DNA of 64,000 nucleotides, taken from Octopus vulgaris (lineage: Eukaryota). Positions 5,176 through 53,594 of the stretch are shown here, in pieces. Position 1 is the first letter of the stretch. Every line of letters starts with the position of its first letter. Location of the stretch: assembly GCA_951406725.2 (NCBI GenBank), contig OX597819.1:100316001-100380000 (forward strand), given 5' to 3'. The translations under genes and the position numbers were made by a program. The notes beneath the pieces are model-generated. The model searched no databases. It saw nothing but the letters and a program-made list of their open reading frames with translations, and was not told where the DNA came from.

Positions 5176-5592
5176 GGGCGCAGGAGTGGCTGTGTGGTAA
5201 GTAGCTTGCTAACCAACCACATGGTTCCGGGTTCAGTCCCACTGCGTGGCATCTTGGGCAAGTGTCTTCTGCTATAGCCCCGGGCCGACCAATCCAATGC
5301 CTTGTGAGTGGATTTGGTAGACGGAAACTGAAAGAAGCCTGTCGTATATATGTATATATATATATGTGTATGTGTGTGTTTGTGTGTCTGTGTTTGTCCC
5401 CCTAGCATTGCTTGACAACCGATGCTGGTGTGTTATACATCCCCGTCACTTAGCGGTTCGGCAAAAGAGAGCGATAGAATAAGTACTGGGCTTACAAAGA
5501 ATAAGTCCCGGGGTCGATTTGCTCGACTAAAAGGTGGTGCTCCAGCATGGCCGCAGTCAAATGACTGAAACAAGTAAAAGAGTAAAGAGTAA
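5176..5592 (+). mobile_element. Full-length tRNA-derived SINE family A
   Basis: A box TGGCTGTGTGG, B-box-like GGTTCAGTCC, internal TA/TG microsatellite, 3' hairpin CAGTCA-AA-TGACTG and AAGAGT-type tail; five other copies in the window. Confidence 0.92.
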
Positions 5593-5837
5593 TAGTAATG
5601 GAAACAGAGGAATCCAAAATTTCAGAATTGCAGGTCCGGATTCGGCCCGGAATTTTTTTAATTTACTCGTGGAGTTAGTCTCATTCCAAAATGATATGTT
5701 GGGCTACGTCGTCTAGGGGTAAAGTTGAAAAAGTGTGGCACATTGACACACTGACATTCACATTTATCATATTATTATTTATTATATATTTATTATATTA
5801 TATGAGTTATATTATGTTATATCATTATATTATATAA

Positions 5838-5940
5838 AGACAGTAAGCTGGCAGAATCGTTAACAAGCCACGAGAAAGGCTTAGTGGTATTTTGTCTGCT
5901 GTTAGGTTTTGAGTTCGAATTCCGCCGAGGTCGACTTTGT
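5838..5940 (+). mobile_element. SINE family B, 5' fragment
   Basis: AGCTGGCAGAATCGTTA..GAGTTCGAATTCCGCCGAGGTCGACTTTG matches the copies at 57928-58550. Confidence 0.85.
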
Positions 5941-6283
5941 TTATATATATATATATATATATATACATGTGCGTGTGTGTATGTGTGTGTGTTTATGTAT
6001 GTCGATATGTATTAAAGATAGCAAAAAATTAAAGCAAAATTGATAGTATTCGGAACGTTGGCGACGGGAATTTCTGTCAAACAGACATTGTTAAACAAAG
6101 TTGTACACCATCTCCCTCTTTCTTTCACATACCCACTATTTCTCTCTCTTATATTATTACTTCGTCTACCATCAACATTACTACTTGTAATAAAACAGTT
6201 CTATATTTAAGAGATGAAGAACTATGTATATTATTTACATTATTTATATTTGACAGAGATTTGTCCACATCTTGTTTGTTGTT

Positions 6284-6329
6284 AACTCAACATTTCGGCT
6301 GATATACCCTCCAGCCTTCATCAGGTGTC
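6284..6329 (-). ncRNA. Minimal type I hammerhead ribozyme motif
   Basis: GACAC CUGAUGA A GGCUG-loop-CAGCC GAAAU GUU GAGUU; one helix I mismatch. Confidence 0.75.
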
Positions 6330-6472
6330 TTGGGGAAATTTCGAACCTGGGTTCTCATTCCTAAGGTATTTTTTTATGTTATTACCCAAGATTCCGAGTT
6401 CGATTCCAGGCAGTGACTTTAATAATAATAATAAGAAGAAGAATGATAATAATAATAATAATAACAATAATG

Positions 6473-6530
<58 letters not shown>

Positions 6531-6593
6531 CAACAACAACAATAGCATAAAAAAATACCTTAGGAATGAGAACCCAGGTTCAAATTTCCACAA

Positions 6594-6639
6594 GACACCT
6601 GAAGAAGGCTGGAGAGTATATCAGCCGAAACGTTGTATT
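6594..6639 (+). ncRNA. Minimal type I hammerhead ribozyme motif
   Basis: GACAC CUGAAGA A GGCUG-GAGAGUAUAU-CAGCC GAAAC GUU GUAUU; palindromic AACGUU helix III; one helix I mismatch. Confidence 0.8.
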
Positions 6640-7043
6640 AACAACGAACATGATGAGGACAAATCTCCGTCAAATATAAATAATGTAAATAAAGTAGATA
6701 AGTGTAATAAAACATCAAATCTCCCTAAATTTCTTTGTCTTTCGCTCTCTCTCTCTCTCTCCCTCTGTGCGTCTTCGTCACCACCCTCACCGTATGTATG
6801 CCTACTATTAGTCTCAGCCCATCATGAGGAATAGTAGAAGTGTCATTGAATAGTGAGCGAGGGGTCTAAGTGTGACACACTGACACACAGAAATTAGTTT
6901 TCGCATTTATAATATATATATATATATATATACATGATTTTAAAATAGGATAAAATCTTCATAAGAATTTATCAAGTAGTCAGCGTGAAAAACTCCATAA
7001 GAGAAAAATCCACCAATTGAATATGTATCAATATATATTTGAG

Positions 7044-32614: not shown

Positions 32615-34087
32615 TCTGTATATGGTAAATGAAAGACAGAAGATGGAATGTACGAGAAATTATTTTATTAATCACGACAATTGTTTCAACTGCTTTAGCA
32701 TCGATCCCTCACAGTTGCGACACGTAACAACTTGTTCCGAATCATTCAGCGGTGCAGACGTGTGCCATCGGGTGATAAATAATAAATACAACTATTTAAA
32801 ATAACAGTTCCGCAATCTATTTTCTCCTTTCGTAGAAAGAAAAGCAACAAAACGCAGAAAATAACTTCGTTTATACAGAAGATCAAACATATGATCATAG
32901 ATGCAAAAAAACAAAAAAACAAACGAACACCCAATACAGCAAGAACAGTATTAGAAATAACCGTTAATAGATATGGATGTACAAACAGCCTCGCGCAAGT
33001 TGCACAGTGCGTGCACGCCCGCTCGTACAAGGATCCGCGAAAATGTAAGCGTACGCATACATGTGGTTTGGTGCACGGTCCTAAAGCGAGTTATATGACT
33101 ACTTGATGTTTATAAGAATGGAGAGGTAAAAGCTAAACTTAATTCATTCATACCTTAAAGCAAATTATGTTAACAGTTGTTCATATTCATTCCCACTGAA
33201 TTATGCGAAAGTACATTTATATATGTGTAGCTATTTTGAGAATCTTTCAGTAAATCTATTAATGATCTTCTCATTAGACTCCAAAATAGTCGAGGATTCC
33301 TTGAAGCATAGTCATCTCCTGGAAATGATATTGTATAGTTCTGCGTACCATACTATGGACCAAGTTATGTTGTACTTCATTTTATCTACCTTCAGTCGCC
33401 ATACAAATTCGGTCAAAGATGATGCATCTCTCTTATTGATTCTCTTGATAAAGCTTCTTAAATCTATCAGTAATCTGCCTAATGTAAACACACGGCCCTC
33501 TCCTCGTATGCACGGTACATTTATATAGAAGATTTGTACTCATGCAGAGGTTCCTCATTGGGAATTTTTATTTTTCTCTACATGAACATTTATTATATTT
33601 ATTTGTATACATGGCAGTTCTGACTTCATTTTCCGACGTATTTACCGTGTTCGCTATATCATAATCATTTCTACTATTACAATTTTGGCCATAATTGGTG
33701 CTTTTCGTTGAGGTTTACATCTCCTTTGATGGTATTTAGATGCGTTTACTCGCTAGATCCAGTAGATGAGTAACCGAACTGTTATCGCATATTACTAATG
33801 TATATGCGATGCATAAGCTTCTCCAATTTAGCAGAGTTAGCGTAGGATACCTTCACGGATTGTCGATTAAAAATAGCATGATAATGATTAGATTTAGGAA
33901 AACATTTTATACAAAGCGGCAAACAAAGTTTTCCAACGATCGTGGTTGAGACAAGCGAACTAAAAATTGGGTTGAACCAGGGGACATCCTGATTTCTAAA
34001 TGTAACGGATCGATGCTACATGTGTCAAAACAATTGTTGTGATCATGAATAAAAATTGTATATTCCATCTCCCGTATTTCGTTTACC

Positions 34088-51959: not shown

Positions 51960-52640
51960 TTGAAGAGATATGTTAATAGGGTAAAAAGTGAGGGTTAAGT
52001 TCAAGTTGCTATGGGGGTTGGTGTGAGGCGTGAATCCGGAGATGCAATCAGCGTGAGTGGTCTGGGGCTAAAATCGACACATGAATTGGAGAACCGTCAC
52101 GTGAGACTGGGTCACAAACGTATCGTGCCGATGGCAACATAAACTGCGAAGGAATAGTGATAATGAATTACGAATAGTATCCAAGCGAAGGAATAGTAAT
52201 CTGGAGTAAAGAAGGAAAAATTTAGAGAGTTTCGTGTGGGAAGAGAGTAAGTTGAGCTGAATGAATGTGAGAGTCGGTTGGTTTACACAGAGGGGACATG
52301 GCGAAAGTGAGATTGGATTATGAACGATGAGATTGGATTATCAATCAAGAAAATTGAGAAATGAGGAGCAGATTCTATAAGTGAATTCAATGGCTTGGGA
52401 GAAAGAATGATGACCTTAATGAAGATTATGCGTTGAATATGAAGGAGTACGGTAACTCTAATGCAATCATCGATGTATATACCATACACTTCAGGTGTGG
52501 GACCACTGCAATTGAAAAAGATTTGAGATTCAACGTAGTCAACGAAATACGGTTTAGCGTAACTCGGGACCATGCTAGTTCCCATGGCCACTCCGGTGAT
52601 ATACTGGTAAAATTTGCCGTAGAAAAGAAATTTAAAGCAG
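51960..52640 (-). mobile_element. Penelope-like reverse transcriptase remnant
   Basis: FLFYGKFYQYITGVAMGTSMVPSYA..VESQIF..PEVYGIYIDDCI, then KPTDSH: PLE RT motifs GxAMG and YIDD. Confidence 0.9.
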
Positions 52641-53594
52641 ATACGCGCGAACGCACAAACATGCCCATACACACACTGACGAACACACACACAATCGCTT
52701 ACACTTTTATATGATTTTACACGCTGAGATAAACGTTGTTTATATCCAGTGTAACAAGGAATAACCGGGTTAAATCACACATATATATTTATGTGACTCA
52801 GTTTATCGATATAAATATAGTCTATAAATTCTGTACTTTGTTTGTGAAACAATGTCGACACTTCCATAAGGCAGTAACTTCCAAAATAGTACAAAAGTGT
52901 AGTAGTTGATCCAATGACACCTATAAATTATAACATGGCTGTCGGATTTCGACAACCGTTTTAATGATAAACGATTCTTAAATTAGCATCAATTGTACTG
53001 GTACTTAAAACATTTGCTCTGCGAATGTGATGTACGGCTAGAGAATCAGCATGTGTAGAGATTATAATCCACGTAGTATATAATCTATTGCTTTCAATTC
53101 GATTGAGCTTATTAAAACGACAATCACATAATTTACCACTCTGAGCAACGCAAACATTTGACCAGTATATGTATGACAGAACATATATAAGGTCAAATTC
53201 ATCATTTGTTGATCGAAGACTTGTAGAATTGTTGATACCACGAATATATTAATGCGAAAATAAAGATTTCAAAATGGAATCGGTGATGAAGAAATATTTA
53301 CTTGAACGTTGGCCAGACACTTTAGAAAGCTGCCAAATATCTTGTGATTGTAAAATAGAAATTAATCGACAGGCTTTGGGGTAGAAATAAAATAAAGTAA
53401 AAACAAATGGTGCTGAAAATGGCAAAAATACTATCGATTATATAAAGTTAAATTTTGTGTCAACATTAGAAATTTGTCCCATTGGTTATTAAAACTTTAA
53501 TGAAGAGCGGTGCTTAGTGATGTACCGTAAAATGGTCTTCAGTTCACACCATTAGTAAACATGCACACATACAATGAGTACAGCTACAAGCCTA

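Follow-up and report, generated by a model that had tools for sequence, protein, structure and literature searches.

The described systems closest to the element reported here are two Penelope-like elements (PLEs), Poseidon_Ac of the green anole (PMC11167929) and Pen2a of Adineta (PMC3846280). In the accounts given there, each carries a single ORF with a reverse transcriptase (RT) and a GIY-YIG domain at the C-terminus, together with a pseudo-LTR (pLTR) that contains the ORF start and a hammerhead. Inverted truncated pLTRs, an optional tail of ~30 nt on one end, an AT-rich target and a short target-site duplication (TSD) belong to the same description. The combination of an inverted pLTR with a one-sided tail is the PLE insertion pattern (PMC8557442, PMC3846280), and in Poseidon_Ac the one-sided tail goes back to two internal RT start sites seen in vitro (PMC11167929). 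The octopus element resembles both in these respects. It differs from them, as described, in a pLTR beginning with an A/B-box head of tRNA origin followed by (AAT)n, in a solo-pLTR to ORF copy ratio of ~6 to 1 among the sampled loci, and in a coding strand without TTTT.

Among non-coding retroposons, SINEs and TRIMp3 are known to have Pol III promoters; one in a protein-coding retroelement would be unusual. TRIMp3 elements (Cassandra, Helenus, Ajax) likewise have a small-RNA-derived Pol III promoter inside the terminal repeat, but are described as non-autonomous LTR elements of 0.3-1.3 kb, whereas the octopus element is an autonomous-type PLE of about 2.9 kb (PMC10886601). In the schistosome repeats Sm-alpha and Sj-alpha a Pol III promoter lies beside a type I hammerhead in a short repeat (PMC6765202). 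These are reported there as non-coding tandem repeats whose canonical hammerheads are freed from multimers. The octopus unit, by contrast, is the dispersed pLTR of a coding element, and its hammerhead is a minimal one. Non-LTR retrozymes are also short hammerhead units, proposed to derive from PLE pLTRs (PMC7229834, bioRxiv 10.64898/2026.07.22.740005); they are described as head-to-tail arrays with circular RNAs (PMC7229834), whereas the octopus unit inserts singly or head to head.

The DNA analysed, hereafter the window, is a 64,000-nt stretch of Octopus vulgaris contig OX597819.1 (positions 100,316,001 to 100,380,000, forward strand). The insertion within it is laid out as follows, in window coordinates:

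6186..6197, plus strand: left target-site duplication, 12 nt, TGTAATAAAACA, sharing its last 2-3 nt with the inverted arm's end
6196..6226, minus strand: PLE tail of ~30 nt, on the inverted arm only
6227..6383, minus strand: inverted 5'-truncated pLTR arm; its hammerhead module is the PLE ORF start
6284..6329, minus strand: minimal type I hammerhead of the inverted arm, with one helix I mismatch and the helix III palindrome changed to AUGU
6385..6419, plus strand: 3' half of the tRNA-derived pLTR head (head positions 45-79), with the B box at 6398-6406
6420..6540, plus strand: (AAT)n/(AAC)n linker of the pLTR, just 5' of the ORF start and of differing length among copies
6541..6692, plus strand: direct pLTR module, with a tail-less end at AATGTAAAT repeats
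6594..6639, plus strand: minimal type I hammerhead of the direct arm, with a predicted cut after GUU at 6634
6693..6702, no strand: junction filler of 10 nt, outside the element
6703..6714, plus strand: right target-site duplication, 12 nt, TGTAATAAAACA

The layout proposed in the initial annotation (12-bp direct repeats, inverted module, B-box remnant, (AAT)n and two hammerheads) was recovered with each part in its place. The arms (6223-6383 and 6541-6700) were 91% alike over 161 nt, and the head remnant at 6385-6419 has lost its A box at the head-to-head junction. During insertion the tailed arm would have reached only the edge of (AAT)n, and the tail-less arm the middle of the head. In the direct module the likely ORF start is the ATG at 6566-6568, followed soon after by a 1-nt deletion in the window copy; in full copies the ~30-nt tail leads in frame into the ORF. 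Elsewhere in the window, 5395-5600 and 5830-5940 are pieces of two other abundant SINE-like repeats, each with 4-9 more copies in the window; these other SINEs we take to resemble octopus repeats. Decayed fragments of other PLE reading frames lie at 33333-33988 and 52286-52774, both on the minus strand.

Rfam and ARAGORN detected neither the hammerhead nor the tRNA motif of the insertion. The hammerhead was identified from its core letters and from the description of minimal hammerheads in PMC4209133, which specifies a CUGANGA/GAAA/NUH core, an extra base after A9, G10.1-C11.1, a helix I of 4-5 bp and a palindromic 15.2-16.2. In the plus-strand window copy the core consists of CUGAAGA, an extra A, a 5-bp helix II and GAAACGUU, and the majority of 111 arms shows the features of a minimal type I hammerhead given in PMC4209133. 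Core letters and arm majority thus bear out the PLE-type minimal hammerhead claimed earlier. The two helix I mismatches, one per window hammerhead and at different places, were likewise confirmed; the C-to-U change in the helix III palindrome of the minus-strand copy (AUGU) had not been recorded.

An exact 32-nt hammerhead pattern had 3,645 matches in the genome while its reversed control had 0, so the window hammerhead is not due to chance. This exact pattern was present in only 8/49 protein-selected arms, which scales to a rough ~22,000 arms genome-wide; the 2 arms encountered in 544 kb of unrelated loci scale, again roughly, to ~10,000. Across the 111 arms the module agreed with its majority at 95%. 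Conservation of the core across copies, which the initial annotation had set as a check, did not stand out: the catalytic core was kept no better than other non-CpG positions of the module, as expected for decay after insertion. Nor was a sharp pile-up of 5' ends found at the predicted hammerhead cut among the element copies; a few junctions coincided with this site, but with microhomology. Since the two window hammerheads lie on opposite strands, they cannot pair in one RNA. A dimer could form through ACGU in a tandem transcript, and the hammerhead would cut only as such a dimer or with protein help; cutting may be dispensable for insertion (PMC11167929).

The short unit, ~290 nt long, runs in the order tRNA-derived head (A and B boxes), (AAT)n, hammerhead module and optional ~30-nt tail. 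By tblastn we identified a locus (L056) in which an RT thumb and a GIY-YIG domain lie immediately 5' of (AAT)n and the module. A search with the L056 domain returned 4,783 candidates, of which 150 were scored and 30 fetched. In 26/30 of these ORF loci a short linker and then the same tRNA head came after the GIY-YIG stop; of the other four, two joined straight to the module and two had neither head nor module. Module and tail form the in-frame 5' part of the ORF and encode the protein N-terminus, their translation matching the N-terminus of relative P0004 at 37% over 190 aa. The full element therefore reads head-(AAT)n-hammerhead/ORF start-tail-ORF(RT, GIY-YIG)-short linker-head-(AAT)n-hammerhead, about 2.8-2.9 kb in all. 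L463 is a complete but decayed copy of 2.8 kb with a pLTR at both ends, L465 is near-complete, and L373 is a partial tandem copy. Three other organisms have contigs covering ORF, linker, head and module, with both 3' ends present; among the contigs listed, none held a piece bridging ORF and head.

Short and ORF-linked pLTRs had the same majority letter at every head and module position. Their agreement with this majority was 0.93/0.95 and 0.93/0.94, respectively, indicating about the same age. Since the head adjoins the ORF stop and the majorities do not differ, the short unit is almost certainly the pLTR of an autonomous Penelope/Poseidon-type element and no separate SINE. The initial annotation had proposed a SINE with a borrowed PLE tail, mobilised by a Penelope-like RT/GIY-YIG. 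Much that it anticipated was found: many copies have, upstream of (AAT)n, a head complete with both an A box and a B box, and the module is matched by the pLTR of an autonomous PLE (L056 and 26/30 GIY-YIG loci); mobilisation by such enzymes is supported as well. The SINE itself has to be given up, with the head lying inside the PLE's own pLTR in 26/30 loci and short copies of about the same age showing no majority difference from ORF-linked ones. Short copies are PLE ends, yet they may be catalogued as SINEs or as unknown repeats, and a library may already list the short unit by name as a SINE or a repeat.

The element carries one ORF with a PLE-type RT and a GIY-YIG domain at the C-terminus, a pLTR with ORF start and minimal hammerhead, and partial tandems, as PLEs do. 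A 569-aa frame at L244 matched RVT_1 at E 2.7e-6, below the curated cut-off, and aligned end to end with RT-EN relatives. Pfam GIY-YIG gave no match on this decayed copy, the EN being identified from alignment motifs, and a PDB search with a PLE ORF gave no match. A Zn-finger linker between RT and EN is a feature of Neptune and Nematis (PMC8557442); it was absent in L244 and its relatives and present in the Neptune-type L091. Because this linker of Neptune is absent, the sequence points to Penelope/Poseidon as the probable clade; the protein hits listed included no named reference. With about 93-95% agreement the element looks old, and no intact full ORF was found among its copies. The Neptune-type family and two other PLE groups of the genome, considered as partner and rejected, do not share the module; a putative subfamily at positions 64/76/98 reflected bias of the window-derived query; and an upstream extension in RNA loose ends was the PLE linker.

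The insertion footprint was examined in 88 loci, which came from 93 of the first 100 C1 matches to the pattern (five pairs were merged and seven matches left unfetched). In simple head-to-head pairs a ~30-nt tail was present on one arm in 45/47, on neither in 2/47 and on both in 0/47; all ORF-selected pairs (11/11) had one tail, and two-tailed pairs amounted to 0/58. Direct repeats of at least 10 nt, one mismatch allowed, flanked 29/45 one-tailed pairs versus 3/179 mismatched controls. These repeats were 78% AT and about 11-12 nt long, with a TSD median of 11 against 7 in controls. Inverted truncated pLTR, one-sided tail of 30-40 nt and short TSD together constitute a PLE footprint. Thirteen of the 88 loci had ORF sequence and 71 had the head; ORF-bearing L264 and L265 look like one duplicated locus. 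The remaining 75/88 of these hammerhead-selected loci lacked ORF sequence, giving the ratio of ~6 to 1 for solo pLTRs to ORF copies.

By analogy with Poseidon_Ac (PMC11167929), the protein would nick each strand of an AT-rich target, with about 11-12 nt between the nicks. From either 3' end reverse transcription would then begin internally on the RNA, at one or the other of two priming sites separated by ~30 nt, and short homologies would serve to join the resulting cDNAs head to head. A head-started RNA primed in its 5' pLTR would yield exactly the ~290-nt copies, and one primed in a downstream pLTR the ORF copies; most short copies would therefore be by-products of autonomous RNA with no lineage of their own. 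The family offers a large natural data set for two-site internal priming, known in vitro from Poseidon_Ac.

Insertions were single or head to head rather than in the head-to-tail arrangement of retrozymes, and only rare derivatives were tandem. Such mini-tandems occur at L355, L360, L367, L375-L378 (G000:C29), L358, L364, L365, L368-L370, L372, L379 and L381, in the order module-tail-ORF 5' piece (122-266 nt)-module with one hammerhead per unit; the period at L355 is 276 nt. They retain the presumed protein-binding sequence beyond the tail and look like retrozymes born from a PLE 5' region. Two apparently separate lineages among them (L358, L379, L364, L372) share the same ORF join, about 234 nt past the tail and just before an A run. 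At this position the ORF continues into either the start G of the head or the predicted cut site of the hammerhead; since the cut-site join has CGTT microhomology, cleavage is only a candidate cause.

In the head majority, built from 55 heads, both the A box and the B box are complete, though ARAGORN finds no cloverleaf in it; both boxes were retained in 23/55 head copies. A tRNA-related 5' head with A and B boxes, as in SINEs, is therefore present. A tRNA profile found a sense tRNA-like piece after the ORF in 21/30 of the element's own copies versus 0/37 distant relatives, the latter being 37/79 metagenome loci chosen for long matches and, mostly, enough downstream DNA. The head was 68-70% like the heads of two other SINEs in the genome. 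Its best match among 35 genomic tRNA sequences was tRNA-Arg (z 7.6); these represent few isotypes, so the assignment is tentative. OR1 and OR2 are of Arg-related origin. Along with OK, they are the octopus tRNA SINEs reportedly described by Ohshima and Okada in 1994. All three share a tRNA-derived head with the present element, compared by description only, and OR2 is called a CORE SINE (PMC4758252).

The start of the head is a sharp boundary. In 45/106 head-bearing arms the 5' end fell at -4..+9, a rate of 6.6% per nt at risk, compared with 0.77% at +10..+58 and 0.22% at -298..-14. Nine further arm ends at -13..-5 were mostly fold-back look-alikes, and a second cluster of ends lay at +21..+24. 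The start G is 13 nt 5' of the A box and 28 nt 3' of TATAAG, which occupied -28 in 21/24 copies (29 copies less five with rearranged linkers). As the start region forms an imperfect hairpin, junctions were split by where the partner arm ends. An arm reached +12 in 90 of 144 loci: 57 of these stopped close to the start of the head with a partner arm that was missing or ended at another point, 16 were near-symmetric, and 17 were scored as extending upstream, namely 13 ORF-bearing loci, 2 short ones and 2 that by eye are artefacts.

These counts bear on whether the ends are random 5' truncations of PLE cDNA, piled up by a hairpin or palindrome at the pLTR start with no promoter signal. The imperfect hairpin and the 16 near-symmetric junctions are in keeping with this, the +21..+24 cluster fits microhomology joining, and palindromes at inverted junctions have been described for PLE pLTRs (PMC3846280). 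Stalling, however, is expected at the stem base (about +15) and not at 0 to +5; the 57 loci end at the head start irrespective of a partner arm; and the mini-tandems L364 and L372 jump onto exactly the start G. We regard truncation of this kind as very improbable.

The same boundary, together with the missing ORF sequence in 75/88 hammerhead-selected loci and the intact boxes in 23/55 heads, could be expected of a true SINE with short Pol III masters of its own that uses PLE enzymes in trans; L364 and L372, with a head and an ORF 5' piece, could be such masters. Yet the head sits inside the autonomous pLTR, no diagnostic majority differences set the short copies apart, and their age equals that of ORF-linked copies. 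Solo copies also have neither the TATA upstream nor the stretch of ORF past the tail that Poseidon_Ac needed in vitro (PMC11167929), and no other SINE family with the same head but another body was found in 1.57 Mb of fetched DNA. Neither an unshared head nor a lineage of its own, as of an independent composite, was therefore seen, and a true SINE is improbable, if less so than truncation.

Transcription of the whole coding element by Pol III is likely, because the pLTR opens with tRNA-type promoter boxes; the RNA would start at the head of an upstream pLTR. The complete reading, head-to-head insertion of two pLTR pieces from an element that Pol III transcribes from its tRNA head, is the one we lean towards, by a modest degree. 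The main competitor keeps the same pLTR but has Pol II start from the TATA 28 nt upstream, leaving the tRNA piece as a 5' UTR passenger or driver of a minor RNA. TATAAG at -28 in 21/24 copies is a Pol II-compatible place, but a TATA at about -30 also serves Pol III via TFIIIB. Both boxes are perfect in the majority though the tRNA stems have decayed and the cloverleaf is lost, and the RNA start would be that of the tRNA head; both observations favour Pol III. For Pol II speak a TATA/Inr pLTR promoter proposed for Adineta Pen2a (PMC3846280), an internal LINE-like promoter proposed for D. virilis Penelope (PMC2377424), the presence of TATAAATA 5' of the hammerhead in relative L394, and an account of translation that needs no new assumptions. 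Overall we consider Pol II unlikely, though a more serious contender than a SINE; were it the real polymerase, this would be a Poseidon family of the ordinary sort that carries, as a curiosity, a captured piece of tRNA.

A further argument for Pol III over Pol II comes from TTTT, at which Pol III stops. The coding-region majority had 0 TTTT in 2,555 nt where a base shuffle expects 4.4 (P=0.006), versus 8 in the Neptune-type majority and 10 in that of another family; from pooled PLE codon usage one would expect 4.4 and 1.1 in the two coding parts, and a real copy, L465, had 0 in 2,632 nt. Under stricter nulls the gap is weak. A dinucleotide null expects 2.3 (P=0.12), and shuffling the element's own codons expects 1.2 per part, with zero in 25% and 20% of runs. 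TTTT was also absent from the RT-EN stretch in 4/52 relatives, and two other local PLE ORFs had only 1 and 2. Of 12.9 million RNA reads from a related organism, 6,880 matched, on both strands about equally and with no common ends, which fits read-through in host RNAs; a transcript attributable to Pol III was not seen among them. A search of sequencing runs listed none of RNA that contains the sequence.

A bolder version, on which we are somewhat doubtful, extends transcription by Pol III to a promoter swap: the element would have exchanged its promoter for a Pol III promoter of tRNA origin, cleared a 2.9-kb unit of Pol III terminators, had its uncapped RNA translated, perhaps through an (AAU)n leader or hammerhead cleavage, and shed ten thousand or more solo-pLTR copies. 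If true, this would be LINE and SINE in one, and a direct route for the birth of a SINE from its own partner. A coding element run by Pol III would also raise the question of cap-independent translation, which hammerhead cleavage can drive in RNA viruses (PMC13725137). Against Pol III in an element of this length stands Kojima's argument that the processivity of this polymerase limits elements to about 1.3 kb (PMC10886601, section 4.1). The kind of element and its insertion mode are known; the promoter arrangement looks undescribed, and the signs of Pol III transcription are fair but indirect. In a literature search made mostly among open-access papers, we found no PLE with a tRNA-derived pLTR promoter and no PLE-mobilised tRNA SINE; a Repbase or Dfam entry or the supplement of a PLE paper may already describe the element.

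Other PLEs and repeats were encountered in the same searches. L139-L143 represent a very abundant PLE group (16,659 candidates, frames up to 1,091 aa), in which a regex search found no canonical hammerhead. L091, L096, L072 and others belong to a young Neptune-type family with many intact 781-aa frames, which inserts in (TA)n and has variant hammerhead-like ends. Another minimal hammerhead repeat with a different helix II (L077; L153:9523, minus strand) adjoins (TA)n and is unrelated to the tRNA-headed PLE. On a metagenome contig, six tRNA-Cys-like units with a 135-nt period (L397:6659-7426) lie 2 kb 3' of a PLE ORF.
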